Translations under genes and position numbers: made by a program
NCBI GenBank assembly: GCA_016124955.1
Contig: WGMR01000004.1
Span: forward strand, 57,491 to 121,490
DNA length: 64,000 nt
Origin: Alphaproteobacteria bacterium
Lineage (GTDB): Bacteria > Pseudomonadota > Alphaproteobacteria > UBA9219 > RFNS01
Reading direction: 5' to 3'
The notes under the pieces: model-generated
Databases searched by the model: none
The model's input: the letters and a program-made list of their open reading frames with translations, nothing else
Told to the model about the DNA's origin: nothing
Part shown: positions 1,963 to 63,574 of the stretch, piece by piece
How positions within the stretch are numbered: the first letter of the stretch is position 1
Layout: each line of letters opens with the position of its first letter

Positions 1963-2574
1963 TTATTTAATCGCCGCGATAATCTCGGCGCGCAGCCCGG
2001 TGATGCCTGCGCCGGTGGATGAACTTGTCATTCGCACCGTATGGTCGCCGGCACCTGCGATCCGCAACGTTTCGGTCACCGCATGCAAGACCTGTTCCTG
2101 TTCGGCGGGTTTGATCGCATCGGTCTTGGTCAGCACGGCCTGGAACGCCACCTGATGCTGCGCCAGAAAATCCATGATTCCGAGATCGACCGGCATCACC
2201 CCGCGCCGCGCGTCGATCAGCACCAAAACGCGCCGCAGCGCTGCGCGGGTGGAAAGATAGTGCAGAGAAAGTTCGCCCCAGGCGTGGCGCTTCTGCCCGC
2301 TCGCCTTGGCAAAGCCGTAACCGGGCAAATCGACCAGCACAAACCGGTCGCCCACCGTGAAGAAATTCAATTGCTGCGTCCGGCCCGGCGTGCGCGAAGT
2401 GCGCGCCAGCGCCTTTTGTGACGCGAGCGCGTTGAGCAGCGATGATTTCCCGACATTCGAACGCCCGATCACGGCGATTTCCGGCGCGCGTTCCTTCGGC
2501 AACTGGCCGGGCGCGCCGGCAGCGGCAAAAAAAGCGGCGCTGTTGAAAAGCTGTTTGTCTTTCGTTGCGCTCAT
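1963..2574 (-). CDS. engB: ribosome biogenesis GTP-binding protein YihA/EngB
   Basis: GRSNVGKSSLLNAL (G1) and DLPGYG (G3) motifs. Its ATG overlaps the yidC stop by 1 nt (ATGA). The ORF-track extension to 2799 is only a read-through inside yidC. Confidence 0.85.
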   Translation of the reverse strand: MSATKDKQLFNSAAFFAAAGAPGQLPKERAPEIAVIGRSNVGKSSLLNALASQKALARTSRTPGRTQQLNFFTVGDRFVLVDLPGYGFAKASGQKRHAWGELSLHYLSTRAALRRVLVLIDARRGVMPVDLGIMDFLAQHQVAFQAVLTKTDAIKPAEQEQVLHAVTETLRIAGAGDHTVRMTSSSTGAGITGLRAEIIAAIK

Positions 2575-5242: not shown

Positions 5243-6466
5243 ATGCGGGATTTCCTGACGCTGGACGATATCGACTGCCACGGCAAAACCGTGCTGCTGC
5301 GCGCCGACCTGAATGTGCCGGTGGACGAAGCCGGCACGGTGACGGACGCGACACGGCTGGAACGGCTTGCGCCGACTATCCGCGATCTCGCCGCCTGCGG
5401 CGCGCGCATCGCCGTGCTTTCGCATTTCGGCCGGCCCAAAGGCAAGCCGGAGCCCGGCAGCTCGCTGCGCCAGATCACACCCGCTTTCGCCCGCGCGCTC
5501 GGGCGCGATGTCAGCTTCGCCGAAGATTGCATCGGCGCGGCGGCACAAGCGGCCATCGGGGCGCTCGGGCCGGGCGGCGTCGCGGTGCTCGAAAACACCC
5601 GCTTCCATGCCGGCGAAACCGCGAACGACCCGGCCTTCACGGCCCAGCTCGCGAAGAACGGCGATATTTTTGTGATGGACGCTTTTTCGACCGCGCACCG
5701 CGCGCACGCCTCCACCGTCGGGCTGGCCGAATTGCTGCCCGCAGCCGCCGGGCGGCTGATGCAGGCCGAACTCGATGCGCTTGATGCCGCGCTGGAACAT
5801 CCCGCAAGGCCGGTGCTGGCGCTGGTGGGCGGCGCCAAAATATCGACCAAGCTCGATCTGCTCGGCAACCTTGTCGCGCGCGTCGATGTCCTGGTGCTGG
5901 GCGGCGGCATGGCCAACACATTTCTGGCGGCGCGCGGCGTCGATGTCGGGCAATCGCTCTATGAACGGGATATGCTCGATACCGCGCGGGAAATCGATGC
6001 GGCGGCGGCGAAAAAGGGCTGCGCCATCTTGTTGCCGACCGATGCCGTCGTGGCCGCAGAATTGCGCGAAAACGCCGTCACCGCCGTGGCCGCCGTCGGC
6101 GCGCTGCCGGCGGGTCAGAAAATTTTCGACATCGGTCCGCAAACGGTGGGCGCAATTTGCGCGAAGCTGACGGAAATGAAAACCGTGGTCTGGAACGGCC
6201 CGCTTGGCGTGTTTGAAATTCCGCCGTTCGATGCGGGCACTTGCGCGGTCGCGAACATGGCGGGCGATCTGACGGGCGCGGGCAAAATAATCTCGGTCGC
6301 GGGCGGGGGCGATACCGTTGCGGCGCTGAATGTCGCGGGCCAGGCGGAAAAGTTCACTTATATATCGACCGCGGGCGGCGCATTCCTTGAATGGCTTGAG
6401 GGCAAGGACCTTCCCGCCGTCGCCGCGCTTCGCGAAGCAAAACGCGCTCAAACAGCGAAGCGGTAG
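5243..6466 (+). CDS. pgk: phosphoglycerate kinase
   Basis: 407 aa from [11 protein letters not shown]; contains [16 protein letters not shown] and GGGA signatures. The last ~7 codons are supplied by the first copy of the tandem repeat downstream. Confidence 0.9.
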
Positions 6467-6544
6467 CGCGTTAAAAAACAAACGCTCAAACAGCGAAGCG
6501 GTAGCGCATAGAAAAACCACGCTCAAACAGCGAAGCGGTAGCGC
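6445..6544. repeat. tandem repeat, 3 copies of a 25-nt core (CGCTCAAACAGCGAAGCGGTAGCGC) with 12-13 nt A-rich spacers, period 37-38
   Basis: Cores at 6445-6469, 6483-6507 and 6520-6544. The same core, inverted with one mismatch, recurs at 62328-62447. Confidence 0.75.
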
Positions 6545-6556
6545 TTTATATTAATA

Positions 6557-7372
6557 TTATATTTCCGGCCAGGCTTCCTGAAGCCGCGGGCCGATGCGCA
6601 CAGGCGCGATCGCGGTCGCAAGCCCCGTATTGTCGCTTGTGACCACAAGCGTGCCGCATACCGTGCCTTCACCTTCGGCGGGCGCGAGCCTTTCGCCCGG
6701 TATCTTGCGGGTGAAGCGCCAGATCGCGGTTTCCTTCTTCATGCCGATCACGCTGTCATAATCGCCGCACATGCCGGCATCGCCCTGGCAGGCGGTGCCG
6801 CCGGGCAAAATTTGCGCGTCCGCCGTCGGCACATGCGTATGCGTGCCGACCACGGCCGAAATGCGCCCGTCCAGAAAATGCGCGAACGCCATTTTTTCCG
6901 AACTTGCCTCGCCGTGAAAATCGACAAAAATCGCGGCCACGCTCTGGCCCAGCCGGTGTTTTTGTAAAAATGCGTCGATCAGGGCAAAGGGGTCATCGAG
7001 CGGCTCCATGAACAAGCGCGCCATGATGTTGATCACCAGAAGTTTTTTTCCGCCCGCGCATTCTACAATGCCGTGCCCCTGCCCCGGCGTACCGGCGGGG
7101 AAATTCAGCGGACGCAAAAGACGCGGCATGCTGTCCGCGAGCCCAAGCAGCTCGCGCTGGTCCCACACATGGTTACCGGTCGTGATGCAATCGATCCCTG
7201 CGGCGAACAGTTCTTTGGCGATCGCGCCGGTAATGCCATAGCCTCCGGCCGCGTTTTCGCCGTTCACGATCACAGCGTCGGGCCGCAGCCTTTCCTTCAG
7301 CGCGGGCAAGTGCTGCAACGCGGCTTCGCGGCCGCTGCGACCGACCAGATCGCCAAGGAACAATATACGCAT
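6557..7372 (-). CDS. YmdB-like (TIGR00282-family) metallophosphoesterase
   Basis: MRILFLGDLVGRSGR...VIVNGENAAGG...GNHVWD...DFHGEASSEK...GTHTHVPTAD, the calcineurin-like phosphoesterase motif order. True start at 7372, not the ORF-track 8086. Confidence 0.75.
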   Translation of the reverse strand: MRILFLGDLVGRSGREAALQHLPALKERLRPDAVIVNGENAAGGYGITGAIAKELFAAGIDCITTGNHVWDQRELLGLADSMPRLLRPLNFPAGTPGQGHGIVECAGGKKLLVINIMARLFMEPLDDPFALIDAFLQKHRLGQSVAAIFVDFHGEASSEKMAFAHFLDGRISAVVGTHTHVPTADAQILPGGTACQGDAGMCGDYDSVIGMKKETAIWRFTRKIPGERLAPAEGEGTVCGTLVVTSDNTGLATAIAPVRIGPRLQEAWPEI

Positions 7373-7417
7373 CGCGGTAAAGTGGCGCAGGCGGGCTTTT
7401 TTGTCTAGGCTGGCGCC

Positions 7418-8284
7418 ATGATCGAGGAATTCGCCCCCGCCAAGCTGAACCTTTACCTCCACGTCACCGGGCGGGGGGCTGATGGCTATCATTTGCTCGA
7501 TAGCCTCGTCGCTTTCGCCGACGTGGGCGACACCGTTACCGTAGCGGCCGCCGAGAAATTCTCGCTTTCCGTTACCGGCGTCATGGCGGGCGCGCTGGCG
7601 GGCACCGATATCACGCGCAACACGGTCGCGAAGGTGGTGCATGGGCTGGCGGCAAAGCTGGGGCGGCCGCCCCATGTTTCGGTATCGCTTGAAAAGAACC
7701 TGCCGGTCGCTTCGGGCATCGGCGGCGGCTCGGCCGATGCGGCGGCGGCGCTGCGCGGGCTCGCCCGGCTTTGGAAACTGGCGGAAGATGACCCGCTTTT
7801 GTTTGAAACGGGCAGCACGGCTGGCAAGGATATTCCCGTTTGCATCGCTTCGGTGACACAATATTTCGGCGGCGGCGGCGAACAATTGGGCCCGGAAGTG
7901 GCGCTGCCGCCTTGTCACATCGTGCTGGCCAATCCGGGCGTGCAGGTGGCGACAGCCGATGTGTTCCGCGCCCGCACCGGCAGCTTTTCGCCCGCAGCCC
8001 GGCTTGAAAATACGCCCAGGGATGCCGCCGACCTCGCCGCCATGCTGGCCGCGCGCCGCAACGATCTGACCGAAGCGGCGCTGCATGTCGCGCCCGCGGT
8101 TGGCGATGTGCTGGCGGCGCTGACCGCCACGCGCAACTGCCTGCTTGCGCGCATGCTGGGCAGCGGTGCGACCTGTTTCGGCCTATATACGGACCGCATG
8201 GCGGCCGATGCGGCGGCAGCGCAGCTGCGGCGCAAACAGCCGCTGTGGTGGATCACGCCGGCAAATATGCCCGCACGCATATGA
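7418..8284 (+). CDS. ispE: 4-diphosphocytidyl-2-C-methyl-D-erythritol kinase
   Basis: APAKLNLYLHVTGR...GIGGGSADAAAALRGL... GHMP-kinase motifs. Confidence 0.85.
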   Translation: MIEEFAPAKLNLYLHVTGRGADGYHLLDSLVAFADVGDTVTVAAAEKFSLSVTGVMAGALAGTDITRNTVAKVVHGLAAKLGRPPHVSVSLEKNLPVASGIGGGSADAAAALRGLARLWKLAEDDPLLFETGSTAGKDIPVCIASVTQYFGGGGEQLGPEVALPPCHIVLANPGVQVATADVFRARTGSFSPAARLENTPRDAADLAAMLAARRNDLTEAALHVAPAVGDVLAALTATRNCLLARMLGSGATCFGLYTDRMAADAAAAQLRRKQPLWWITPANMPARI

Positions 8285-8447
8285 AAAGCTCCGTAAAACG
8301 TGGGCTTTATGAGAAAACTGAACGGGTTGCTAAGATCGGTCCGCTTGCGCGACGATCTGTTAACATATTGATTTTAATAGAAAAATAACCCACTATCCGG
8401 CAAACTGGGGGCTCCGGACAAAAAACCAGATTGACAGAGGCGGGCCT

Positions 8448-10022
8448 GTGCAGCCATTTTCCTTGGAAAATCAATCGCACCGAGTCCATTCCGCCGAAGG
8501 AAAGAATCCATACGGCAAACCGGACGATAACCTTTCAAGGAACAGCCTCTTGAAATTCCTCTCTGGCTTGCGGCCGGTTCTCATAGCGCCATCCGATCAA
8601 ATAAGCTCCCTTGTCATCGCCGGTCTTTTGGCGATCGTCATAGGCGGCAGCGGCCATATGCTTGGCGCATCGGGCGGCACCGATTTGAATGTCGGCGTTT
8701 CGGATCTCGGCAAGATCGCGGCCGGCACGGAACCCGCACAAACCGCGGCAAGCGCGGCCACGCCATCGCCCGATACGCTGGCGGCCCCCGAAACGGTCAC
8801 CGCCACGCTTTCAAACCTGCGCGATTTCGCCGTCGCCGCGCTGCCCGCCGCAGTCAAGGAAGAGCCGAAAACGCTCGCCCGCCAGATCGAGATCAAGCGC
8901 GGCCATACGCTGGCACAAATTCTTGACGACGCCGATGTCGATGCCAACAACGCGCATGCGATCGTCGCGGCGCTGCGCCAGGTCTATGATTTACGCAGCC
9001 TGCGCGCCGGGCTCGATATGACCCTGCATTTCGCGCGCGCGCAGGGACAGGAAAAATTCACCGGCCTGACCTTCCAGCCCGGCCTGACCGAGGAAATCAC
9101 GGTCGCCCAGAACGCGGCGGGCGACGGCTGGGAAGCGGTTCGCGCCGAAACTCCGGTCGAACGCCACCGTTTTGCCGCGCACGGCAATATTTCTTCCTCG
9201 CTCTACGAAGCGGGCGACCGCGCGGGCGTGCCGCTGGCGGTGATGGCGGCCTTGATCCGTATCTACTCGCACGAGATTGATTTCCAGCGCGATTTGCGCG
9301 ACGGCGACGCGTTCGAGGTTATGTATGACCAGCCGATGCTGAAAAGCGGCCCGCAGGCCGGTACGGCGGTAGGCGAAGGTACGGTGATCTATGCCGCGCT
9401 CAAGGTCGGCGGCGTGCGCAAAACCGTTTACCGGGTGGTGTTTTCCGATAACACGGCCGAATATTTCAACGAACGCGGCGAAAGCATCCGGCGGGCGCTG
9501 CTGCGCACCCCGGTCGATGGCGCGCGCATGACATCCTCTTTCGGCATGCGCCGGCATCCGATTCTCGGCTATAGCAAAATGCACAAAGGCATCGATTTCG
9601 GCGCCCCCACCGGCACGCCGATCTATGCGGCGGGCGATGGCGTGATCGAAAGCATCGGCACCAACGGCAGCTATGGCCGCTATATCCGCATTCGCCATAA
9701 CGGCAAGATGGCGACGGCCTACGCGCATATGAAGCGTTTTTCTTCCAGCCTCAAGCGCGGCAGCAAGGTCAAGCAAGGCACCGTGATCGGCTATGTCGGC
9801 ACGTCGGGCCGTTCGACCGGCCCGCATCTGCACTACGAAGTGCTGATAAACCGCCAGCAGGTCAACCCGCTTAGCATCAACACCGCGGCGGGCCGCACGC
9901 TTGACGGGCGCATGCTCGCGCAGTTCAAGCAGGGCATCACCCAGATCAACGGCGAGTTCAAGAGCGTGCTCGCGGGCAAGAGCGGCACGCCCGCCGCGAT
10001 CCAGGTCGCCAGCAAGAAGTAA
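8448..10022 (+). CDS. M23-family (LytM-domain) peptidase with N-terminal membrane anchor
   Basis: C-terminal HKGIDFGAPTGTPIYAAGDG...GYVGTSGRSTGPHLHYEV metallopeptidase motifs. GTG start; exact start uncertain. Confidence 0.75.
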   Translation: MQPFSLENQSHRVHSAEGKNPYGKPDDNLSRNSLLKFLSGLRPVLIAPSDQISSLVIAGLLAIVIGGSGHMLGASGGTDLNVGVSDLGKIAAGTEPAQTAASAATPSPDTLAAPETVTATLSNLRDFAVAALPAAVKEEPKTLARQIEIKRGHTLAQILDDADVDANNAHAIVAALRQVYDLRSLRAGLDMTLHFARAQGQEKFTGLTFQPGLTEEITVAQNAAGDGWEAVRAETPVERHRFAAHGNISSSLYEAGDRAGVPLAVMAALIRIYSHEIDFQRDLRDGDAFEVMYDQPMLKSGPQAGTAVGEGTVIYAALKVGGVRKTVYRVVFSDNTAEYFNERGESIRRALLRTPVDGARMTSSFGMRRHPILGYSKMHKGIDFGAPTGTPIYAAGDGVIESIGTNGSYGRYIRIRHNGKMATAYAHMKRFSSSLKRGSKVKQGTVIGYVGTSGRSTGPHLHYEVLINRQQVNPLSINTAAGRTLDGRMLAQFKQGITQINGEFKSVLAGKSGTPAAIQVASKK

Positions 10023-16546: not shown

Positions 16547-16874
16547 AACGGCGCAGTCGCGGTTTCGGGCGGCGAACGCATGTGAGCGCCCGCAGAACAG
16601 TCGCGCAAAAACAAATACCTAAAATTTGATCTATCGCGTTTTTTTCCGCGCCGGCGGATTTATCGTTTCGAAATCCCCTCAAATTGCTTGCAAGTAAAGA
16701 CGGCCCCTCTGGGCAGGCCGTGATGCAAGTAAAACGGGGCCTGAAAACAGGGGGTTTTGGGGGTGCCGAATTAGTTGCGAACAATTTGAGTTAAATTGTT
16801 AATTTATCAATTGTATCAATGACTTAGCTGCGAAAATTCAGGTCCTGTTAACCGCGCCCGCTTAACCTGAACCT

Positions 16875-17969
16875 ATGAGCAGCACGCATGAAAAAGAACG
16901 CAAATTGGGCCTGATCCGGGTAAGGGGCGTAAACGGCCATGCCGATTTCGTCCGCTACACCAACGACAAACGCTCTTTCACCCAGGACCTGCTGACCGAG
17001 CTGCGCAACAACCCGGCCCGCAAGAACGAACTCGATATCCGCAGCCTCGATCTTTCCGGCGCGGATCTCAGCAAGATGGATCTCAGCGGCCTGAACCTCG
17101 CGGGCATGAACCTCAAGGGCGCGAACCTCAAGGGCGCGAACCTGACCAACACCAACCTGCGCGGCGCGAACCTCGAAGGCTGCAACCTCGAAGGCGCGAA
17201 CTTCTCGGGCGCGAACCTGCAGAACGCAAAGCTGGCCGGTTCCAAGATCGGCGGCGCGGTGTTCGACCGCACCGATGCGCGCGGCGCGGATTTCACCAAG
17301 GTGCGCGGTGCCGCCCTGTTCAACGGCGGCTTTGCCGGTGCCTGCTTCGCCGGCGCGCAGATCGCGGGCTCCAACCTTCGCGACAGCAACTTCGACAACG
17401 CGCAGATGCGCGGCGTGGACCTGACCAACGCCACCGGCGACAACGTGAAATTCACCAATGCCAAGATGCAGGGCGCCAGCCTGAACAACGCGGCGCTGGA
17501 TAATGCCAACTTTTCGGGCGCTGATCTGCAGGGCGCTGATCTGCGCTACGCCGGCCTGCGCCATGCTTCGTTCGCCAGCGCGAACCTTTCGGGCGCACTG
17601 GTCAACGGCAGCACCGATCTGGGCAAGGCCGATCTGAGCTACGCCGCCACCGCCGGCACCAACATCACCGTCGCCAACATTGCCGGCGCCGAGCTGCGCG
17701 GCATGAAGTTCGGTAACCGGAACATGACCGACCGCGCCGAAAGCACCCTGATCGCAGGCAACGCGGCGCTGGAAACCGATTACAAGGGCGGCAACGACAG
17801 CTGCCGTCCGGTGATGTCCTTCAAGGCGGGTGACCGCTACGCCTCGCTCAAGGCGGCCCCCGGCCCGTCACTGACCGTGCGCAAGCCGGGCACGGAACTG
17901 GAAATGCCGGTGCGCCCGGCCGCGGCCTTCAAGCACGCGTTCCCGACCCCCTCGCCGATGGCGGCGTAA
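16875..17969 (+). CDS. pentapeptide-repeat protein
   Basis: More than 30 tandem A(D/N)LxG-type pentapeptides (GANLKGANLTNTNLRGANLEGCNLEGANFSGANL...). Confidence 0.8.
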   Translation: MSSTHEKERKLGLIRVRGVNGHADFVRYTNDKRSFTQDLLTELRNNPARKNELDIRSLDLSGADLSKMDLSGLNLAGMNLKGANLKGANLTNTNLRGANLEGCNLEGANFSGANLQNAKLAGSKIGGAVFDRTDARGADFTKVRGAALFNGGFAGACFAGAQIAGSNLRDSNFDNAQMRGVDLTNATGDNVKFTNAKMQGASLNNAALDNANFSGADLQGADLRYAGLRHASFASANLSGALVNGSTDLGKADLSYAATAGTNITVANIAGAELRGMKFGNRNMTDRAESTLIAGNAALETDYKGGNDSCRPVMSFKAGDRYASLKAAPGPSLTVRKPGTELEMPVRPAAAFKHAFPTPSPMAA

Positions 17970-19822: not shown

Positions 19823-20536
19823 TCACGCCAGGGCTTCCTGCTGCTTGGCGCGCAAAATCGCGGTGCCTTCGCGCGCAAGCTTCATCAGCTGCTGGAACTG
19901 TTCTTCGGAAAACGGCTTCTGTTCGGCGGTGCCCTGCACCTCCACGATTCCGCCGCTGCCCGTAAGCACGAAGTTCGCATCCGCCTGCGCGTTGCTGTCT
20001 TCCGCGTAATCGAGATCGAGCACGGCGGCATTGTTGTAAAGGCCGCACGAAATCGCGGCGACGCTGTCGGTCAGCGGCGGTTTCTTCAGCCGACCGATGC
20101 GCACCAGATGCTTGCAAGCGAGCGCAAGCGCGACATAGCCGCCGGTAATCGCGGCGGTGCGCGTACCGCCGTCGGCCTGCAGCACATCGCAATCGATCTT
20201 GATCTGCATTTCGCCGAGCGCGGCGCGGTCGGTCACCGCGCGCAGCGCGCGCCCGATCAGCCGCTGGATTTCCTGCGTTCGTCCGCTTTGTTTGCCTTTT
20301 GCCGCTTCGCGCTCGGTGCGCTCCGATGTGGCGCGCGGCAGCATGCCGTATTCCGCCGTCACCCAGCCAAGACCGGTGCCGCGCAGCCAGGATGGCGTGC
20401 GCTCATCGATGCTGGCGGTACACAATACATGTGTATCGCCGCATTTGATCAGACACGATCCTTCGGCATATTTCGCGGCATTGATATCGAGCTGGATGGC
20501 GCGCAGCTCGCCTACGGTTCTTCCGGATGGACGCAT
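19823..20536 (-). CDS. rph: ribonuclease PH
   Basis: [19 protein letters not shown]...[11 protein letters not shown]...[13 protein letters not shown]...; AAGGAA RBS upstream. Confidence 0.9.
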
Positions 20537-20785
20537 TATGGTTTCCTTAAGTTTAATTAAGCGGACGATAACGGTTTGCTTGTGTAATGGCAAAAGCAAT
20601 GGCCGGAAATGAGTCGGTTCGATTTCGAAACAATATGCCTTAAATGAAAGGTAAAATTAACCAAGACTGTTTCGGAAGCGTATATTTTGCCATATTCATC
20701 AACTAGTTACCCAATTAATCCCTTGTTAAGAGATTTGCTGTCAAATTGATAATGTAGCGACATAAACCGGGCAGAGGTGGGGACC

Positions 20786-20968
20786 ATGCCAATTGTAAAT
20801 GTAGATGGAAACAGGTTGTCGGAAAGGGATCTGAGCGCCCTTGGCGCTGTTGAACAGGTTTCCTTCACTATGCGTCACCCTGACGGCCCTTTGCTTCGCT
20901 GGAAATATATGAACCAGGAAGAAACCTTGAAGAAATTGATCGACGAAGAATTTTGGGTGGAGGAATAA
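20786..20968 (+). CDS. small acidic hypothetical protein (60 aa) in an AT-rich island
   Basis: ATG with GAGGTG 9 nt upstream. Its stop overlaps the RBS of the next gene. Confidence 0.4.
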   Translation: MPIVNVDGNRLSERDLSALGAVEQVSFTMRHPDGPLLRWKYMNQEETLKKLIDEEFWVEE

Positions 20969-20971
20969 CAC

Positions 20972-21250
20972 ATGTCTTGGGCACCAACCGCTCGTATGGC
21001 AACCAAAGCCGGGCTTGTTCCTTGGAGACTTACTCAAACGGCATCGTCTGCTGTGGGTAGTGGCTTTGAATCGATAGGCTCTCTTCTGAAAGGCAAGCCC
21101 ATTACTGCCGTAAAGCAATTTGCAGGCGGCTTGGGCAAACTGTTCAGCGGTGTAGGCCGGGTGCTGCAGGGCACATCCCTTACACCAGGCAGAAATGCCA
21201 CGAATTCATTGCGTGACAGAAATCCAAAACTTCAGCCTGGAAGCGCATAG
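20972..21250 (+). CDS. small basic Gly/Lys-rich hypothetical protein (92 aa)
   Basis: ATG 3 nt after the previous stop, with GGAGGA RBS (translational coupling). FAGGLGKLFSGVG Gly-zipper-like segment. Confidence 0.4.
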   Translation: MSWAPTARMATKAGLVPWRLTQTASSAVGSGFESIGSLLKGKPITAVKQFAGGLGKLFSGVGRVLQGTSLTPGRNATNSLRDRNPKLQPGSA

Positions 21251-25866: not shown

Positions 25867-26407
25867 CGCGCCCCGCCCGTTTCTGCCCGCGGCGCAGCAC
25901 GACATAAAGCGCGCCGTTGCCGCCGTGACGCGGCGCGGCGGGTTCGGCGCCGATAACCGATTGCATGAATTCCGGCGCGCGCAGCCAGCGCGGCACGTCC
26001 GCGCGCAAAACGCCGCTCTTGCCCGTAATCACAAGCACGCAGCGCATAGCGCCGCGCCGGGCGATGGCGATAAAATGTTTCAAGGCTTCATAGGCTTCCG
26101 GGCGCGTCATGCCGTGCAGATCGATGCGCGCTTCAAGCGGCACGCGCCCGACCCGTAATTTTTTAACGATGTTGCGGTCAAGCTGCCAGCCGCGATCGTC
26201 CGCCGTCACGGCAATATGCACGCGCGGCACGTTCTTGTGCTGGAAACTGTCCGGATCGGGCACGATGGCCGGGCCGGCGCCTTGCCGGCGCGGGGCGGGC
26301 CGGGGCTTCTTTGCCGTTTCCGTTTTTTTGCGCGCGTCCGCGCCGCGCTTCAACGGCTTGATGCCGCGCGCGTATTCCCGCCAGAACCGTTCGTCTTTTT
26401 CATCCAT
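25859..26407 (-). CDS. Smr-domain protein
   Basis: C-terminal Smr domain (LDLHGMTRPEAYEALKHFIAIARRGAMRCVLVITGKS), with the disordered basic N-terminus typical of alphaproteobacterial Smr proteins adjacent to mltA. Confidence 0.7.
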   Translation of the reverse strand: MDEKDERFWREYARGIKPLKRGADARKKTETAKKPRPAPRRQGAGPAIVPDPDSFQHKNVPRVHIAVTADDRGWQLDRNIVKKLRVGRVPLEARIDLHGMTRPEAYEALKHFIAIARRGAMRCVLVITGKSGVLRADVPRWLRAPEFMQSVIGAEPAAPRHGGNGALYVVLRRGQKRAGRDG

Positions 26408-26583
26408 GCAGCCAACCACGAATTCTCTACGACTCGCCCCATATTCAATATGCGGTACAATGCTTTATAAAAGCACGGTTTTTGTGCCGTATAGTTAACG
26501 TCTGCGTTTGTTTTTTAGTTTCTTCGCTCCATGATACGATTAAAATGAAGCCCATATAACAACAGCTTTTAAAGAGGCAAAAA

Positions 26584-27114
26584 ATGAGCCGGAGCAACAT
26601 TGCCAAAGGCAAAATCATATCGGCAGACGTTATCGATGCCGTCGCTTTTTCTGCAAGCGGCCCCACCCATGTTACCGCTTATTCCACGGTCAAGCCCGGC
26701 ACGGATGGCGCGGTGAAAATGGTCGCGATCGAGCTAAGCAAGCGCACACCCGGGCGCGCCGTACTTGCTGCAAGCCTCGGCATAGCCGCCTTAGCTGCAT
26801 TCTCTATCGGCTTCTGGGCGCTCATTCCGGCAGCACTTGGTGTCGGCGCTTCCATCCTTACGGAAAGGCTTTCGCGCGAAAAAATCCTGCTTAGCCAGAA
26901 GGCGGTTGATGGTCTGATACAAAAAGAATATCCGGATCTCACGGAAGCGCATCCGGATCATGTCCCCTTAACTGTCGCCAGAAGGCTTGTCGGCAATCGC
27001 GTCACGCTCGAAACCTCCGCCCCCAATGATACGTCGGAAAATGGCGGCGTATGGGAAAATTTCGGCAGCAAGCTTGGCTATCGCCGTGTCGCCGCTAGTT
27101 TGAAATTCGGCTAA
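26584..27114 (+). CDS. hypothetical protein with one central TM segment
   Basis: ORF after an AT-rich 150 bp upstream region, RBS AAAGAGG. No family recognised. Confidence 0.4.
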   Translation: MSRSNIAKGKIISADVIDAVAFSASGPTHVTAYSTVKPGTDGAVKMVAIELSKRTPGRAVLAASLGIAALAAFSIGFWALIPAALGVGASILTERLSREKILLSQKAVDGLIQKEYPDLTEAHPDHVPLTVARRLVGNRVTLETSAPNDTSENGGVWENFGSKLGYRRVAASLKFG

Positions 27115-36172: not shown

Positions 36173-37216
36173 TCAGGCTTTCCAGTTGCGCACCAGATCC
36201 ACAAGCTGCGCGACATGGTCCGGCGGCGTTGCGGGAAGGATACCGTGACCAAGATTAAAGATAAACGGGCCCCCTGCAAGGGCTTCCATAATGGAGGCAA
36301 CCTCGCGTACCAGCTTGCCCCCGCCCTCGAGCAATATTTCGGGCCGTAAATTGCCCTGTACCGGCCTGTCTTGCTGCAATTTGCGCGCGGCGGCCAGCGA
36401 TACGTCGCTATCTATGCCGATGGCGTCCGCGCCGCTGGCCGCGGCATAGCGGCCATAAAGCCCGCGCGCCCCGCGCGGGAAGCCGATTACGGGTATTTCC
36501 GGGTAATGCCGCTTGATCTCGGCGGTTATCTTTGCCGCCGGTCCGGTCACAAAACGGGTAAAAAGCGCCTCGTCGTGCGCCAGTAATCCGGCCCAGCTGT
36601 CGAATATCTGTAAAACCCCGGCGCCGGCGCTGATTTGCGCTATAAGATATTGCGCGCTTGCTTTGCAAAGCTGGTCTGAAAGCGCTGTCAGAAGATCCGG
36701 CTTTTCCTGCGCCCATTGCAGCGCACGGGCAAAGCCGCCGTTCTTGCCGCTTTTTCCGTCAATCATGTAGCAGGCTACCGTCCAGGGTGCGCCGCAAAAC
36801 CCTATCAGCGATGTTTTGTTGCCAAGTGCGGCGCGGACGGTTTTTATAGCCGCGCAGGTCGGCGCCGTTCCGGCTTCATCGTAAACAAGGTTCCACGCAC
36901 CGCTATCCTCGGGCAACGGGTCCAGACGCGGCCCTTCGCCTTCGGCAAAATCCAGTCTGCGGCCAAGGGCATGGGGAATAAGCAATATATCGGAAAATAT
37001 GATCGCGGCATCCAATCCGAAGCGCTTTACCGGCTGCAAGGTAACTTCGCTTGCCAGTTGCGGGTTTCCGCAAAGTTTCATGAAGCTCCCGGCCTGTTCC
37101 CGGACCGCACGATATTCGGGCAAATAACGTCCCGCCTGCCGCATCAGCCAGATCGGCGGCGGAGATGTGGCTTTGCCATTAAAAGTTTGTTCGAGCGTAC
37201 GCATTGAATTATCCAT
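36173..37216 (-). CDS. hemE: uroporphyrinogen decarboxylase
   Basis: ...PPIWLMRQAGRYLPEYR... HemE N-terminal signature. Confidence 0.9.
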   Translation of the reverse strand: MDNSMRTLEQTFNGKATSPPPIWLMRQAGRYLPEYRAVREQAGSFMKLCGNPQLASEVTLQPVKRFGLDAAIIFSDILLIPHALGRRLDFAEGEGPRLDPLPEDSGAWNLVYDEAGTAPTCAAIKTVRAALGNKTSLIGFCGAPWTVACYMIDGKSGKNGGFARALQWAQEKPDLLTALSDQLCKASAQYLIAQISAGAGVLQIFDSWAGLLAHDEALFTRFVTGPAAKITAEIKRHYPEIPVIGFPRGARGLYGRYAAASGADAIGIDSDVSLAAARKLQQDRPVQGNLRPEILLEGGGKLVREVASIMEALAGGPFIFNLGHGILPATPPDHVAQLVDLVRNWKA

Positions 37217-37606
37217 AGACGCGTTCTTCTATAATAAGAATATATAATAGATAGGAGTTGTAGGTTGGTCCTGTTGAAAATGGGTATGGAATGGCTTTTT
37301 AAGGGTTATGCGCTAAGTTATACGCAGGCTTTTTTTATAAGGCTTCAATATCCCTGTGGATCGAAACTGTGTAGCCATGTGTGCAAGTCCGCATATTGGC
37401 GCTAACCGAGGTTTGTGATTTTTGGGGGTAAACAAGGCCCTTGTTTTATCCCGGTTATACACAAGCGTGTTTGACATAACGGCTATCCTGTTGGGTAAAA
37501 GCGTGACAGTTTGTGCATGACAGGGATGATTTTCATGGGCCTGTGAAAAACCCGTTCTTGTCACCGTAATCCACAGGCACAGCGCAGGAAGGACAGAATA
37601 CCGGCA
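37205..37606. other. oriC: candidate chromosomal replication origin (Cori-type, between hemE and DUF299 gene)
   Basis: Roughly 390 bp non-coding, visibly AT-richer than its surroundings. DnaA-box-like 9-mers: TTATCCATA (37209-37217), GATCCACAG on the bottom strand (37354-37362), TTATACACA (37455-37463), TAATCCACA (37567-37575), and weak TTATCCCGG (37445-37453). AT tracts at 37224-37256. The location matches the conserved hemE|RP001(DUF299) origin site of Caulobacter and Rickettsia. Confidence 0.55.
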
Positions 37607-47331: not shown

Positions 47332-48048
47332 TTAGTGTGCCGGCGCGTAGTCGCCGCTGAAATCGACGTCGCTTTTCACGAGCCGGAGATGCGGAACACT
47401 TTTCTTCTGCGCCGCCCTGGTTTCCGCTTTTTGTTGTTCGACCAAGGCTTCGGCCTCGCTCACAAGATAATCCGCGACCATTGCCAGTTCCTGCGCGATG
47501 CTTACTTGGTCCTGCGGGTCGCTCAGCTCGATGTAATCGATATTAAATTCGCGCAACGTGTTGCAGCAATGCAGGCTGCTGACAAGCAGCGAAAGATCGT
47601 GGAACAGGGTGCCGATGCGCGTCGCCATCGCGCGCATGCGCGTCTTGGCCGGGCCGGTCGCGAGCCCGCAGCGCGTCAGCGCATGGATGAAATCGTTGCC
47701 GAAAATCATGGCATCCGGCGCGATGCCGTGCTGGCCGTCTTCGTTGTTGCGGCCGCGCGTGATCCACGCGCGCATCTGTTCACGCACGGCGGTGTTGCCA
47801 TCACCCGCGCCGCCAACCTCGCCGTCCGGGTCAAGTCTGGTGGGCAGCCATGCCAGTTCATCGAGCTGGTGACGGATCGCGCGCATGCCCATGCGCTCGG
47901 CCTGCATATAAGCGAAGGCGTATTCGTCGCGGCTGCAATCGGCCGAAAGGCTATGCGCGGCCAAAATGGCCTCGCGTTCGCCGGCGATGCGCTCCTTGGC
48001 GGCCATCAGAAGGCCGCGCACTTCATCGATATGTAATTCGGTGGCCAT
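47332..48048 (-). CDS. hypothetical protein (239 aa)
   Basis: ORF from MATELHIDEVRGLL...; several HxxxE/ExxH-type spacings. No confident family. Confidence 0.5.
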   Translation of the reverse strand: MATELHIDEVRGLLMAAKERIAGEREAILAAHSLSADCSRDEYAFAYMQAERMGMRAIRHQLDELAWLPTRLDPDGEVGGAGDGNTAVREQMRAWITRGRNNEDGQHGIAPDAMIFGNDFIHALTRCGLATGPAKTRMRAMATRIGTLFHDLSLLVSSLHCCNTLREFNIDYIELSDPQDQVSIAQELAMVADYLVSEAEALVEQQKAETRAAQKKSVPHLRLVKSDVDFSGDYAPAH

Positions 48049-48354
48049 GGGCCTGTTCCGATCCCTTGTTTCGCGGCACCGGGCCGCAAAGCCCGAAATA
48101 ACCGCACAAAGGTTAATTTTAACCAAAATATATCCATAAATTGTTAAGCCACAGCTTTAACAATCAATCATTAAACATATGATATATAACAATAATTTTT
48201 GTGTCATTGGCCTTATGGGTGCCTTTGCGGCTAAGACGCTGATATCCCTGCCTGTCTCAAAATTTTTTTTAATTGTGCAACAAAAGTTCGTTAAATATCG
48301 CCATCAGCGCACATTCTTTGCGCGCGCGGGCGTTTCGCCCTATACCTTCCGGCC

Positions 48355-50214
48355 ATGCAGGATTTTGATGTCATCATTGTTGGCGGTGGCCATGCGGGCT
48401 GTGAGGCCGCCGCCGCGGCCGCGCGGCTTGGCGCGCATACGCTGCTTGCTACGCATAAGCCTGAAACCATAGGCGAAATGTCGTGTAACCCGGCAATCGG
48501 CGGGCTCGGGAAGGGCCATTTGGTTCGGGAAATTGATGCGCTGGATGGCGTCATGGGCCGGGTGGCTGACCGCGCGGGGATCCAGTTTCGGCTTTTGAAC
48601 CGTAGCAAGGGCGCTGCCGTGCAAGGCCCGCGCGCGCAGGCGGACCGAAAACTTTATCGCCGCTATATGCAGGAAGTGCTCGGCAGTCAGCAAAACCTTT
48701 CCATTCGCGCCTGCGCCGTGGGCGATCTGATCGTTGGCGCCGATAACCGTATCGAAGGTATCGTGACCGAGCAGGGCGAAGTGCTGCGTGCCGCAGCCGT
48801 TGTGATTACGACGGGCACGTTCCTGCGTGGCCTTGTTCATATCGGTGCCGAAAAGATACAGGCTGGCCGTATAGGTGAAGCGCCATCCACGAAGCTTTCG
48901 GCCACGCTTGCACGGCTCCGGCTCGCGCTTGGCCGGCTCAAAACCGGTACACCCCCGAGGCTCGATGGCCGGACGATCGATTGGGCCGGGCTTGAAATGC
49001 AGCCGGGCGACGAACCGCCTATACCCTTCTCGACCCTAACATCCGCGATCACAAATCCCCAGGTTTGCTGCGGCCTGACCTACACATCTGCCGACACGCA
49101 CAACATGATCCGCGCCAACCTCGACCGCTCGCCGATTTATTCGGGACAGATCGAAGGGACGGGCCCGCGTTATTGCCCTTCGATCGAAGACAAGGTTGTG
49201 CGTTTTGCAGACAAGGAACGGCATCAGATTTTCCTCGAGCCCGAAGGGCTAGACGATCACACCGTATATCCAAACGGCATCTCAACATCGCTGCCGCGTG
49301 ATGTGCAGGATGCACTCGTGCGATCCATACAAGGTCTTGAAAATGTTAGTATTTTGCGCCACGGCTATGCGGTTGAATATGACTATGTCGATCCCCGGGA
49401 ACTGACCGCATCGCTCGAAGTCAAGCGCGCGCCCGGGCTTTTTCTGGCGGGACAAATCAACGGCACCACGGGCTATGAGGAAGCGGCGGCACAGGGGCTG
49501 ATTGCCGGGCTGAATGCTGCGCTCAAGGCAAGCGGCAGCTCGCCCTTCACCCTTTCCCGCACGCAAGCCTATATCGGCGTGATGATCGACGATCTGATTT
49601 CCCGTGGCACCGCCGAGCCTTACCGCATGTTCACAAGCCGCGCCGAATACAGGCTTAAGTTACGGGCAGACAATGCCGACCAGCGCCTTACCCCGGCGGG
49701 CCTGGAGCTCGGATGCGTGGGGCCAGAAAGACGGCAGAAATTCACGAGCAAGATGAGCGAGCTGGCCCGCGCGCGGACGATGGCTGAAGGATTTTCTGCC
49801 AGCCCAACCGCGCTTGTGAAACAGGGCGTGCACATCAACCAGGATGGGGTGCGGCGTAGCGCCATGGATTTGCTGGCCTATCCCGATGTTTCACGTGAAA
49901 CATTGACCAGAATTTGGCCACAACTATCTGATATTAAAACAGAAATTTTGAATCAAATCGAGACAGATGGCCGCTATGCCGGCTATATGGACAGACAGGA
50001 TGCCGATATTCGGGCCTTCGAGAAGGATGAAGCTTTGCGACTGCCGGCCGACCTGGATCTCGATGCCATCGGCGGGCTTTCGGCTGAGGTACGGCAAAAA
50101 CTGGCGCAGGTACGTCCGCAGACGCTTGGTGCGGCCGCGCGCATTCCGGGGGTTACGCCAGCGGCCACCCTGGCACTCTTGCGCTATGTTAAACGCAGTA
50201 AAAAAGCAGCATAA
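48355..50214 (+). CDS. mnmG: tRNA uridine 5-carboxymethylaminomethyl modification enzyme MnmG (GidA)
   Basis: [22 protein letters not shown] fold, full-length GidA. Confidence 0.95.
49887..49902. promoter_or_regulatory. parS: parS centromere site (TGTTTCACGTGAAACA)
   Basis: Perfect 16-bp palindrome identical to the ParB-binding consensus; lies inside the mnmG 3' region (encodes DVSRETL). Confidence 0.75.
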
Positions 50215-60307: not shown

Positions 60308-61615
60308 ATGCGTAAGCTTCTTCTCGCCACTTCGGCTCTCGCCGGCGTTGCCATGATCGCCACTGGCGCTCAGGCCGCTGCTCCGGCGCCTGTCACGGTG
60401 AATGTCAACGGTTATGTTGATTTCCGTGCCGGTCTTTTCCACGAAGACAAGAACAACAACACACCTCTGGCGAACAGCGCCAGCGCGTCGCGCCGCGACA
60501 TGGACTTTGAAACCGAGTGGAAGGTCAATGTCGATGTTGAAGGCAAGGCTGCGAACGGCGTCGAATACGGCGGCCGCGTCAGCATCTGGAACGGCTCGTC
60601 CTACATCGATGGCGGCAACGGCGGCAACAGCTACAACCACAACTCGAGCCAGACGAACACTGGCACGGGCGGTCGTGCTGATCAGGCCTATGTCTATATG
60701 ACCAGCAACTACGGCAAGCTCATTGTCGGCGACGAGCACGGCGCTTCGGACCTGTTCGTGTACGCTCCGACGATCGGTGCAAACCAGGTTGACGGTGTTT
60801 ACACCGACTTCACCGACCCGGCTTCGCTTTGGGCCGTTCAACCCGCTTTCTTCGACAACATCGAAGATAGCACGAAGGTCACCTACTACACCCCGCAGCT
60901 CGGCAACGACGAGCACAAGGTGCAGCTGGGTGCGAGCTTCACGCCCAACCAGAGCGATGAAGGTCAGAACGTTGTCAAGTACCAGAACAGCGCAGCAACC
61001 AGCAATGGCACGCTGTACGCCCCGTACGAAAACCTGTTTGAAGCAGGCATTCAGTACACGGGCAGCTTTGACGCCGTTAACGTCGTTCTGAGCAGCAACG
61101 TGATCACCGGTTCGGGCGAAACTCTCGCTGTTAACCAATTGGTTCAAGGCACGGCTGACCAGTATCAGGACTTCCTGCTCTGGGGTATCGGCGGTCAGGT
61201 CATGTATGCTGGCTTCACGGTCGGCGGCAGCTATGTCGATGCGGGTCGCTTCAACACGGTCAACACCATCTCTACCGGCCTGAACCAGAACAAGGATCAA
61301 ACCTTGTGGTCGGCCGGCGTGAGCTACGGTGCCGACAACTGGGCCCTGGCGTTCAGCTACCTTGGCGGTGAAGGCTACAACAATGCCTTCGCGGTCAACG
61401 GTAACGTTCCCACCTCGGGTGCGAACACCAACTACGTAGAGGACATCAATGTGTACGGCTTCGGCGGTACCTACACCTGGTTCCCGGGTATGTCCACGAA
61501 CGTCGATCTGGTGTTCTTTGAACAAGACCGCGCCGACAATTTTGGTTCGGTTGCGACAGCAGCTCAGGACAACTCCGGTCAGGTGTTCGTCCTTACCCAG
61601 AAGCTGGAATTCTAA
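60308..61615 (+). CDS. outer-membrane porin (beta-barrel)
   Basis: Signal peptide (MRKLLLATSALAGVAMIATGAQA). Alternating amphipathic beta-strands, Gly/Asn/Tyr-rich loops, and a C-terminal aromatic residue (...LTQKLEF). Confidence 0.75.
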   Translation: MRKLLLATSALAGVAMIATGAQAAAPAPVTVNVNGYVDFRAGLFHEDKNNNTPLANSASASRRDMDFETEWKVNVDVEGKAANGVEYGGRVSIWNGSSYIDGGNGGNSYNHNSSQTNTGTGGRADQAYVYMTSNYGKLIVGDEHGASDLFVYAPTIGANQVDGVYTDFTDPASLWAVQPAFFDNIEDSTKVTYYTPQLGNDEHKVQLGASFTPNQSDEGQNVVKYQNSAATSNGTLYAPYENLFEAGIQYTGSFDAVNVVLSSNVITGSGETLAVNQLVQGTADQYQDFLLWGIGGQVMYAGFTVGGSYVDAGRFNTVNTISTGLNQNKDQTLWSAGVSYGADNWALAFSYLGGEGYNNAFAVNGNVPTSGANTNYVEDINVYGFGGTYTWFPGMSTNVDLVFFEQDRADNFGSVATAAQDNSGQVFVLTQKLEF

Positions 61616-61632
61616 TCCAGACTTAGGGTAAC

Positions 61633-61670
61633 AAGCTTGAAGGGCGGCTGGGAAACCAGCCGCCCTTTTT
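61633..61670 (+). terminator. rho-independent terminator
   Basis: GGGCGGCTGG-gaaa-CCAGCCGCCC followed by TTTTTGTTTG. Confidence 0.7.
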
Positions 61671-61714
61671 GTTTGTGTTTATTTTTCTGCCTAAGCTTTT
61701 AAGGACTGCAATAC

Positions 61715-62302
61715 ATGGCCTATGAATATTCTGCAGAAAACCATAATTGGGATCTGACCTTGAGGGCATCATGGAACCTTCTTATGTCAGGTCAGGCGGC
61801 TAGCAAGGGGCCAAACCTTGAAAAAAAGAACGAACAAGTATTTTCATTTTTTACCGGATCAATGTTGCTTGCTTTTTGTGCAATCGAAAACTTCACAAGC
61901 TCGGTTGCATTTTCGATGCCTGACCATGACAGGTTTAGAGCCTTTGATTATGAAGGCTACAAAAGAATAATCAGATTTTGGGATAAAATAGAGAAGGTGT
62001 GCGCTGCGTTAAATCAGCCGGTAGATAAATCGCAAGGTCTTTTTCAAATAATCAAAGAAATGCAAATTTGGAGAAATGCACTATCCCATACTTCGTCCTA
62101 TGAAATCGAAAGTACGGAGATTCAGGATACTGTTAAAGATTCTTCCATGCTACACGTACCCTTTCACAACAAGGAATACGCGCGGTCTGTCAACGTAGGT
62201 AATGCCAAGAAGTTTTATTGTGCAGCATATAATTATATTGATATGGTCAAGAATGCGTCCGGGATTGAACCCAGGGCAAGCTGCACATATAAGCCAATTT
62301 AG
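61715..62302 (+). CDS. hypothetical protein in a strongly AT-rich island; RNxxxH (HEPN-like) motif
   Basis: AAGGA RBS. Codon usage and GC differ sharply from the flanking genes. WRNALSH fits the Rx4-6H HEPN signature. Family assignment is tentative. Confidence 0.5.
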   Translation: MAYEYSAENHNWDLTLRASWNLLMSGQAASKGPNLEKKNEQVFSFFTGSMLLAFCAIENFTSSVAFSMPDHDRFRAFDYEGYKRIIRFWDKIEKVCAALNQPVDKSQGLFQIIKEMQIWRNALSHTSSYEIESTEIQDTVKDSSMLHVPFHNKEYARSVNVGNAKKFYCAAYNYIDMVKNASGIEPRASCTYKPI

Positions 62303-62327
62303 CTTAACCAAACAAACCCAATATATT

Positions 62328-62447
62328 CGCGTGGCTTGAGCGTGGTTGTTCCGCGCTACCGCTTCGCTGCTTGAGCGTGGTTGTTCCGCGCTACCGCTTC
62401 GCTGCTTGAGCGTGGTTGTTCCGCGCTATCGCTACGCTACTTGAGCG
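62328..62447. repeat. tandem repeat, ~3.5 copies (period 35) of the inverted 25-nt core GCGCTACCGCTTCGCTGCTTGAGCG
   Basis: Cores at 62353-62377, 62388-62412 and a degenerate one at 62423-62447. This is the reverse complement (one mismatch) of the core at 6445-6544. Confidence 0.75.
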
Positions 62448-62452
62448 CGGGA

Positions 62453-63436
62453 TTATTCCGCCGCTTCGGTGTCTTTTTTTTGGGCCAGCACTTCGGCGGG
62501 AAGTCTGATCTGGCGCCGCTGATAGCGGTAGCCGGAAACGAAGCGGGCGAAATGCTGCACGAGCTGCGGATCGCGCGACAGGCGCGCCAGCGTATCGCCC
62601 AGTTGTGCCATATGACCGGCCAGCGCCTTTTCCCCGCCCGCCTGCGCGCCCGCGGGGACGGCCGCGCGGAACAGCGGCTCATGCACCGCGCGTTCGAACA
62701 ACTGCGTAACAAGATCGAGCCCGATCACGGGTGTGACGCCGAAGGCGACATGGATCGTGGCTTCGCTGGTCGCCAGCGCGTCATGGTACCAGCCGCGCGG
62801 GATGTAGAGGATATCGCCCGGCTCCAGCAGCACATCGAGGCTGACGGGCCCGTGGTTCTTTTCGTGAAATTCCGGCGGCAGGCCTTTGAAGGCCGGGTGT
62901 GCCACGGGATCCGGGATCGCGCACTGATAGACTTTCCAGCGTTTGGTGCCCGCGACATGCAGGGCATAAACATCGTGCGTATCGAAATGGGTGCCGAAGC
63001 CCTTATGCGCCTGCCACGAACAATAAAGATTGGCTTGCGCCTTTCCGCCCGCGGTTTCTTCGAGGATCGCGGAAATTTGCTGCAGCGGCGCCGACAGGTT
63101 ACCGATATCGTTGGCGACCAGCGATGCGCCGCGCCGCAACCAGCCCAGCAACTGTTCGGCATCCACGAGCCAGTTATCGCGCCCGTCGCGATCGGTGCCG
63201 CGCGTGCAATATTCCTGCGGCGGGATTTTTCTAAGCTGCCAGGCAAGCTCGAGCGAGCGCTGGGTCCAGAGGCTGTTCTGGCTGAGCAGGGATGAAAGAG
63301 CATCCCAGTTCATCACGCCATCGAGCTTTTTGGCCGCGCCCTTGATATGCAGCGGCTTGCGCCGGTGATATTCGGCGAAAAACTCGCTCTCCGTCATCGG
63401 CGCGAGAAGTTCCGGAAAAGATGCGGGTATTGGCAT
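62453..63436 (-). CDS. cupin-4 / JmjC-domain protein (ribosomal-oxygenase-like)
   Basis: HFDTHDV...H (HxD...H 2-oxoglutarate/Fe(II) facial triad) within a JmjC-like cupin fold. Confidence 0.7.
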   Translation of the reverse strand: MPIPASFPELLAPMTESEFFAEYHRRKPLHIKGAAKKLDGVMNWDALSSLLSQNSLWTQRSLELAWQLRKIPPQEYCTRGTDRDGRDNWLVDAEQLLGWLRRGASLVANDIGNLSAPLQQISAILEETAGGKAQANLYCSWQAHKGFGTHFDTHDVYALHVAGTKRWKVYQCAIPDPVAHPAFKGLPPEFHEKNHGPVSLDVLLEPGDILYIPRGWYHDALATSEATIHVAFGVTPVIGLDLVTQLFERAVHEPLFRAAVPAGAQAGGEKALAGHMAQLGDTLARLSRDPQLVQHFARFVSGYRYQRRQIRLPAEVLAQKKDTEAAE

Positions 63437-63574
63437 AAAATCACTCCCGTTAACCAATCAACCATGCCACAAGCCCGTAATATAGGCCATCCGGGGCATG
63501 AAACAATTGCGCCCGTGCCCCCGGATTTGCTTTTATGGGCCCGCATATTTTAACGATTTTATTGAACCATTGCC

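Follow-up and report, generated by a model that had tools for sequence, protein, structure and literature searches.

Our analysis of a 64-kb stretch of alphaproteobacterial DNA (the window, to whose numbering positions refer unless another locus is named) indicates that a 195-aa, single-domain ORF at 61715-62302 on the + strand encodes a HEPN-superfamily protein. We conclude that this HEPN domain represents a family that falls outside current models and is unannotated everywhere. The gene is foreign to the source genome and was horizontally acquired. Taken as a whole, the data lean towards a solitary HEPN endoribonuclease of a rare, unannotated family, which moves as a leader plus ORF and which would act as a latent single-protein effector of abortive infection or of the toxin type, in the manner of HepS and Tha.

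The ORF begins with an ATG that is preceded, 9 nt on its 5′ side, by an AAGGA box, and together with short flanks it makes up the segment at 61680-62320 to which the original prediction had drawn attention. In terms of base composition, the GC content of the ORF is 0.405 compared to a mean of 0.610 for the 64-kb window, and no other 588-bp stretch of the window has a lower value, which lies approximately 4.6 SD under the mean. Codon usage had been described as markedly AT-rich relative to the neighbouring genes, and the GC3 values bear this out, with 0.42 for the ORF versus 0.73 in both flanking genes, the porin gene and the JmjC gene, and 0.63 in the DUF3576 gene. The term island, which had also been applied to this region, is too strong, as the foreign-looking segment consists of one gene and spans about 0.65 kb. 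Sequence comparison indicates that the ORF is a real gene, with 21 close homologues, 71 matching cluster representatives, and an excess of synonymous over non-synonymous changes.

Five other low-GC valleys were seen in the window when 300-bp windows were used (GC 0.41-0.45), at 16601-16900, 20401-21000, 26351-26700, 37051-37600, and 48001-48400. These are mostly short intergenic stretches that contain no long low-GC ORF, and some regulatory function, for example as promoters, is possible.

Among 5.8 billion proteins searched for close relatives, we found 21 sequences of 188-203 aa, all of them unnamed or designated "hypothetical"; one of these, from an alphaproteobacterial MAG, is identical to the window protein. 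The alignment of the close relatives has as its invariant features the W-R-N-x3-H segment, an N-terminal E-N-H-x-W-D-L-T block, E58, H147, and R187. When 1.84 billion cluster representatives were searched exhaustively with a profile, only 71 matched, and the family is therefore rare. Two broader alignments were used to follow conservation at greater distances, one of 45 sequences consisting of the core family and the most distant full-length matches, and one of 87 sequences to which a sister clade was added, with identities down to approximately 10-20%. In both of these alignments the sole invariant columns are E58, R120, and H125, while N121 never varies within the core family and is close to invariant among the 87 sequences.

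Two of these three positions belong to the sequence WRNALSHTSSY, which occupies residues 119-129 and contains the sole Rx4-6H motif of the protein. The codons of the motif, R120-N121-A-L-S-H125, are located at 62072-62089 on the + strand, and the motif, with its polar Asn after the Arg, is the predicted catalytic motif. Taken alone, an Rx4-6H motif says little: it turns up in 46% of composition-preserving shuffles of the protein, and in 7.6% of them with N, D, or H after the R. The motif carries weight because of its conservation and its position in the fold. The observation that WRNALSHTSSY fits the Rx4-6H pattern of HEPN proteins thus holds, with R120 and H125 invariant among the homologues. 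The third invariant position, E58 (codon at 61886-61888, + strand), is an acidic residue in helix 2 and is the predicted auxiliary active-site residue.

HEPN domains are bundles of four helices that often have an insert between helices 2 and 3. They have a conserved Rx4-6H motif, located where helix 3 ends or the following loop starts, with a polar residue (N, D, or H) next to the R, and an acidic residue of helix 2 that is conserved and close to the motif (PMC3710099). Structure prediction had been proposed as a check of the HEPN assignment, and two AF2 models built on independent alignments gave one topology, with pLDDT values of 80.4 and 85.0. The models contain a strand (residues 3-8), a helix (12-31), a second helix that carries E58 (38-70), two short helices within residues 79-98 that form an insert between helices 2 and 3, a third helix (108-123 or 108-125), a fourth helix (161-182), and a strand (189-194) that pairs with the N-terminal strand. 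Helices 3 and 4 are joined by a long loop (residues 126-160) that was modelled with low confidence. In both models helix 3 finishes at its C-terminal end with W119-R120-N121, and H125 is found at the helix tip or the start of the loop, so that the single-chain models have the up-down four-helix bundle with a helix 2-3 insert, the R120-N121-x3-H125 motif where helix 3 ends, and the acidic residue of helix 2 in the HEPN-like placement. The last of these, E58, has no K or R at +4, and the Ex3[KR] form of this feature is thus absent.

In Foldseek comparisons, the best PDB matches of the models were HEPN toxins, with a probability of 0.98-0.99. HEPN structures were also ahead of all other helical bundles by 3-4 Z units. 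On the basis of these models, the window protein very probably adopts the all-alpha four-helix HEPN fold. The invariance of E58, R120, and H125, and a helix placement that follows the published description of the superfamily (PMC3710099), uphold the HEPN reading that was first put forward from the motif.

Sequence profiles gave a fainter signal in the same region. The window protein produced only noise when it was compared with Pfam, NCBIfam, PADLOC, and PDB sequences (Ferritin-like, E 0.13; LeoA, E 0.0058; Mediator Med30, E 0.11), no PADLOC model matched it, and the family profile likewise gave only noise against PDB sequences. A confident match to a non-HEPN family, which would have counted against the original prediction, was thus not among the results of these searches. 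The six Pfam families that were matched by the largest numbers of members are all HEPN families (RiboL-PSP, MAE_28990, Swt1, Apea, HepT-like, and Cthe_2314), and the sub-threshold Pfam HEPN matches of the family members are all centred on the R120-H125 segment. RiboL-PSP (PF18735) was matched by 15 of the 45 members, with a best score of 24.7 bits (E 2.4e-5) compared to a gathering score of 28.4, and no member reached the gathering score of any of the six. None of the 95 relatives from the broad-profile search has a Pfam HEPN annotation, and the link to named families therefore rests on the sub-threshold hmmscan matches.

PF18735 HEPN_RiboL-PSP is the nearest sequence family, followed by PF18737 MAE_28990, PF18739 Apea, PF18731 Swt1, and PF18730 Cthe_2314. 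The likeness to RiboL-PSP is weak but recurs among the members, and it centres on helix 3 with the RNxxxH motif. The matches span only profile positions ~105-179 of 191, however, and the window protein itself has no match to PF18735 at E ≤ 10.

In established HEPN enzymes, the His acts as the general base on the 2′-OH, the Arg and the polar residue next to it stabilise the transition state, and the activity is independent of metal and leaves products with a 2′,3′-cyclic phosphate (PMC3710099). The active sites are normally formed across a dimer (PMC13043305, PMC11087260). With its predicted catalytic residues conserved in sequence, the window protein is probably an active RNase. By extension from the established enzymes, two protomers would pair with their Rx4H motifs face to face, and the composite site would cut RNA without metal ions to give 2′,3′-cyclic phosphate ends.

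The distribution of the family, the composition of its genes, and its locations point to mobility. Members were found in 13 of 185,579 species-level genomes that belong to many phyla, mostly at approximately 50% identity. The carriers include Alphaproteobacteria, Bordetella, Shimia, Hyphomonas, Gemmatimonadota, Melainabacteria, and Nitrospiraceae, as well as Deltaproteobacteria/Desulfarculales, one Peribacteraceae (CPR) MAG, and Omnitrophota. The GC content of the gene was below that of its flanks in all 25 of the loci compared, by 0.004 to 0.175. The horizontal acquisition that had been proposed from codon usage is supported by the GC3 contrast, by homologues of ~50% identity across phyla, by the lower GC content of the gene relative to its flanks in every one of the 25 loci, and by the occurrence of the JmjC-porin-DUF3576 arrangement without the gene in distant relatives.

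The last of these points is a coarse one. The arrangement is kept in some JmjC relatives (at most 53% identity) that do not have the HEPN gene, and the gene was found in none of the 80 loci of JmjC relatives. The gap between the JmjC and porin genes holds different genes in each relative, and the comparison therefore gives only coarse support for an insertion. A clean "empty site" was looked for and the candidate was rejected, as the closest metagenomic JmjC relatives are only ~53% identical and their gap is filled by other genes. An integron cassette was likewise rejected, since a simple consensus scan detected an attC-like core-site pair in one of 22 loci compared to a background of 1.25%.

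The nearest relative, at locus L016 (8001-8594 in the MAG "uncultured proteobacterium I2_bin-116"), shares 83% amino acid and 80% nucleotide identity with the window gene. The nucleotide homology of 80% extends over 599 nt, which correspond to window positions 61696-62294, beginning 19 nt ahead of the ATG and ending near the stop. Since the homologous DNA is confined to the ORF and these 19 nt, the transferred unit is essentially a leader plus the ORF. The leader that travels with the gene (61696-61714, + strand; 19 nt, CTTAAGGACTGCAATAC...) includes the Shine-Dalgarno-like AAGGA at 61702-61706, and every homologous locus has its own purine-rich tract at an equal distance from the start. The L016 copy contains an in-frame stop, a change of TAC to TAA at codon 82, where the window protein has a conserved Tyr. 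This copy is probably a pseudogene, or possibly the product of an assembly error, and the in-frame stop implies that the gene can be lost.

Several homologues are located within mobile elements. The L016 copy is in the head module of a lambda-like prophage, between a gpA-type large terminase gene and a gpW-like/portal gene (portal phrog_21, 8.9e-111), while in a second prophage (L024) the gene is beside that of the major head protein (3.9e-51). On an IMG/VR viral contig (L029), the gene lies just 3′ of tape-measure and tail genes. In three rhizobial plasmids the gene adjoins Tn3, IS21, or IS66 transposases or an integrase, and in the marine contigs L003-L006 an IS3 transposase is located 229 bp downstream of the gene. 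A tblastn search of 50,697 cultured phage genomes gave no match, and there was no significant match in the viral structure library BFVD.

A further pair of loci share a longer stretch. A region of 1,983 bp with 93% nucleotide identity is common to L019 (6921-8903, a Melainabacteria MAG) and L023 (2147-4129, the Peribacteraceae CPR MAG), and it comprises the HEPN gene, a divergent ORF of ~320 aa with a weak Trypsin_2 match (E 0.002), and a short downstream ORF. Either a 2-kb module has passed between the phyla very recently, or the identity is an artefact of binning.

Some of the gene neighbourhoods have a defence-like character. In L001 and L002 a 219-aa DUF5677 protein (7298-7957 and 2422-3081, respectively) is encoded on the same strand, 44 bp upstream of the HEPN gene; the DUF5677 match scores 33.9 bits, which is over the Pfam threshold, and this neighbour is confined to the L001/L002 lineage. 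DUF5677 has been picked as a defence candidate (PMC12632615). On the Mesorhizobium plasmid MesoLjLa3 (L030), an nSTAND3 NTPase and a DUF4209 protein (6956-9999) are encoded 1.5-4 kb from the homologue, the nSTAND3 protein having a weak, sub-threshold match to Mrr-type nucleases, and this small defence-type cluster is flanked by Tn3 and IS66 transposases. C6orf70/DUF4209 was listed as a HEPN family in the 2013 survey.

The sister clade (P0117) was found on 71 contigs. In L033-L038 (Pseudomonas and related), where the gene is at 6001-6576, it belongs to a conserved block that resembles an integrative element, with recombinase-like genes, an XRE-type HTH gene, and a gene for a 1663-aa protein that combines NERD and superfamily-1 helicase domains; one sister-clade copy has an IS66 insertion. 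The associations with nSTAND3-Mrr, DUF4209, DUF5677, and NERD-helicase proteins give weak support to a role in conflict. By analogy with known systems, a defence or abortive-infection-type role is plausible, though it is put forward tentatively.

These contexts also bear on the alternative that the protein is an active HEPN RNase with a non-defensive role, such as RNA processing or degradation, phage host takeover, competition between plasmids or prophages, or stress-induced tRNA cleavage. The fold and the catalytic residues are equally consistent with such a role, and HEPN domains do occur in RNA processing, for example in Las1, Swt1, and Ire1/RNase L (PMC3710099). The three phage contexts are inside or at the edge of structural modules, and many loci, including the window itself, are ordinary chromosomal neighbourhoods without defence genes. 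However, the very sporadic distribution and the persistently foreign composition of the gene fit conflict genes better than housekeeping or a dedicated function in the phage life cycle, its position in the phage modules varies, as it does for accessory "moron" genes, and the 50,697 cultured phage genomes gave no match. We therefore regard a non-defensive role as unlikely.

The boundaries of the gene and the content of its surroundings are relevant to whether a partner accompanies the protein. The segment had been described as bracketed by the rho-independent terminator of the porin gene and by a tandem-repeat array, and both were located, at 61639-61668 and 62334-62447, respectively. The upstream gene is a Porin_4 gene (60311-61615, E 4e-21). 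Its terminator (+ strand; detected by a terminator scan and also as inverted repeat I1) has a 13-bp stem with 9 G-C pairs and is followed on its 3′ side by a T tract that reaches to about 61678; it is the left edge of the low-GC segment and lies outside the acquired unit. A sub-threshold Rfam match to BjrC68, a Bradyrhizobiaceae sRNA, was seen at 61617-61675 (29.4 bits compared to a gathering score of 39, E 2.9e-5); it overlaps the terminator hairpin and is therefore probably just the terminator. The promoter scan detected no sigma-70-type promoter between the porin terminator and the ATG, and basal expression may therefore come from read-through, which in the window would possibly be the only source of transcription of the gene.

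The right boundary is formed by an array of 35-bp units (62334-62473, family D2), which was delimited by TRF, a pattern search, and alignment of the units. The 35-bp × 3.3 tandem repeat at 62334-62447 starts 31 bases 3′ of the stop codon of the ORF; three near-perfect units (62334-62438) are followed by a degenerate fourth (62439-62473), for a total of ~4.3 units. The repeat gave no match in 100 shuffles and occurs only once in the window. The downstream gene, a JmjC_2/cupin gene at 62453-63457, is convergent on the - strand, and the fourth unit of the array consists of its stop codon and last codons. Because of this overlap, the array looks like a tandem amplification of the JmjC 3′ end at the junction. 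Its GC content is host-like, no Rfam family matched it, and when TRF was run on 28 further loci of the family, no comparable tandem array was detected beside the gene. In summary, the array is a local, host-derived amplification of the JmjC 3′ end that does not belong to the HEPN module; it could have arisen by slippage or by repair when the gene was inserted.

No MNT or other co-oriented partner gene is adjacent to the ORF in the window, and no nucleotidyltransferase-family neighbour is present in the Pfam lists of L001-L015. An all-versus-all BLAST of the ORFs within 4 kb found no neighbours common across loci except in near-duplicate contigs, and with the same exception, a lenient comparison of the immediate upstream and downstream ORFs found none in common even at E = 10. 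A cryptic protein partner was therefore rejected as a candidate. None of approximately 20 independent contexts has a conserved neighbour, which corroborates the description of the gene as solitary and without an adjacent antitoxin.

One neighbour with a possibly toxin-like feature was observed in an Omnitrophota MAG (L027). A 125-aa ORF at 7554-7931 has a C-terminal segment (…IRIVYAHYPDEDMLEFIEIYHKSDKEN…) that, we presume, resembles RelE/ParE-type toxins. This ORF is directly upstream of the most divergent of the genomic homologues.

The possibility that the protein is instead the toxin of a toxin-antitoxin pair, the antitoxin having been overlooked as a very small protein, as antisense RNA, or as a repeat RNA in a type III ToxIN-like arrangement with the 35-bp array, is improbable in light of these data. 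A ToxIN-like system would call for a consistent repeat-array neighbour, whereas the array is present in this window only and in none of the 28 other loci, has a host-like GC content, lies downstream and not upstream of the gene, and includes the JmjC 3′ end as its fourth unit; the array as a type III RNA antitoxin was rejected on its absence from those loci, its JmjC origin, and the lack of an Rfam match. A protein antitoxin, MNT or other, would be expected among the flanking ORFs, of which none is common to the loci. The two closest copies share nucleotide homology over no more than the ORF and 19 nt, and H+2 is occupied by Thr, Ser, or Ala, in contrast to the AMPylated Tyr of HepT. Least probable of all is that the protein is non-catalytic, either a generic helical bundle or a ligand- or protein-binding HEPN-like domain in which RNxxxH is coincidental, as invariance among the 87 sequences is restricted to just those three positions that are predicted to be catalytic, HEPN structures outscore other bundles by 3-4 Z units, and the sub-threshold Pfam matches converge on six HEPN families with no competing family.

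The differences from HepT extend beyond this residue. In the HepT/MntA type VII toxin-antitoxin system (SO_3166/SO_3165; PDB 5yep, 7ae2, 8xdj) an MNT gene is adjacent, whereas the neighbours of the window gene are the porin and JmjC genes. HepT has an Rx4HxY motif with the AMPylated Tyr at H+2, while in the present family H+2 is mostly Ser and a conserved Tyr is found at H+4 (Y129). The window protein is also ~60 residues longer, with the helix 2-3 insert, the long helix 3-4 loop, and the terminal strands, and matches to the HepT-like family of Pfam are sub-threshold and limited to three of the 45 relatives.

The closer comparison is with HEPN proteins that act without a partner. HepS ("HEPN Solo", encoded by the Gifsy-1 prophage of Salmonella; PDB 9oik) is a partner-less protein of ~200 aa that rests as an inactive tetramer (PMC13043305). 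The tetramer is opened by a peptide of the phage tail tip, which joins the N- and C-terminal strands of HepS in a sheet, and the opened enzyme cleaves tRNA anticodon loops (PMC13043305). The window protein is similar to HepS in that each consists of a single HEPN domain, is ~200 aa long, and has a canonical Rx4H motif, both lack a conserved partner or immunity gene, both are often prophage accessory genes, and both have an N-/C-terminal beta-sheet outside the helical core, which in the window protein is predicted from strands 3-8 and 189-194. The window protein showed no sequence homology to HepS (PDB 9oik), and the absence of a partner and the three phage contexts constitute a likeness of lifestyle and not family membership.

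Tha-1 and Tha-2 are partner-less HEPN RNases of S. aureus prophages that stay latent until minor tail proteins activate them (PMC11087260). Tha has 301 aa with an extensive N-terminal region, and an inhibitor encoded by the prophage (Ith) controls it, whereas the window protein consists of the HEPN domain alone and has no such partner.

If the protein is a solitary RNase of abortive infection, as the HepS and Tha systems suggest, it would be made in a latent, auto-inhibited oligomeric state; we infer latency because no antitoxin exists. The enzyme would then be switched on by a signal that a phage or another invading mobile element supplies, and this signal may bind to the terminal beta-strands or to the long helix 3-4 loop. 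Once active, the enzyme would cleave tRNA, mRNA, or rRNA, which would arrest the cell and abort the infection, and the beneficiaries may be kin cells or the prophage or plasmid that carries the gene.

A more specific version of this proposal can be formulated, although we consider it rather unlikely to hold in full. The protein would represent a new, self-contained sensor-effector family of solo HEPN proteins, convergent with HepS, in which the family-specific ENHxWDLT block (E8-N9-H10-x-W12-D13-L14-T15), the paired terminal strands, and the helix 3-4 loop with its invariant H147 form a docking site for a phage protein that opens the latent RNase. The minimal cassette of leader and ORF would spread between phyla, without a recombination site that simple scans can recognise, into prophage structural modules, plasmids, and intergenic sites.

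In terms of significance, the window protein is the founder or a member of a HEPN family that has gone unannotated; the family is of a well-known kind and introduces no new principle. If the proposed activity is confirmed, a compact, partner-less RNase family of 195 aa would join the few single-protein HEPN immune effectors, HepS and Tha. It would extend over Alphaproteobacteria and poorly studied phyla with thin defence inventories, where Pfam, NCBIfam, and PADLOC are blind to it, and it would supply a new model for defence-finder databases. The protein would also be a small, tractable subject for the study of how a toxic RNase is silenced without an antitoxin. For the source genome, the finding means the recent acquisition of a single gene beside a major porin gene.
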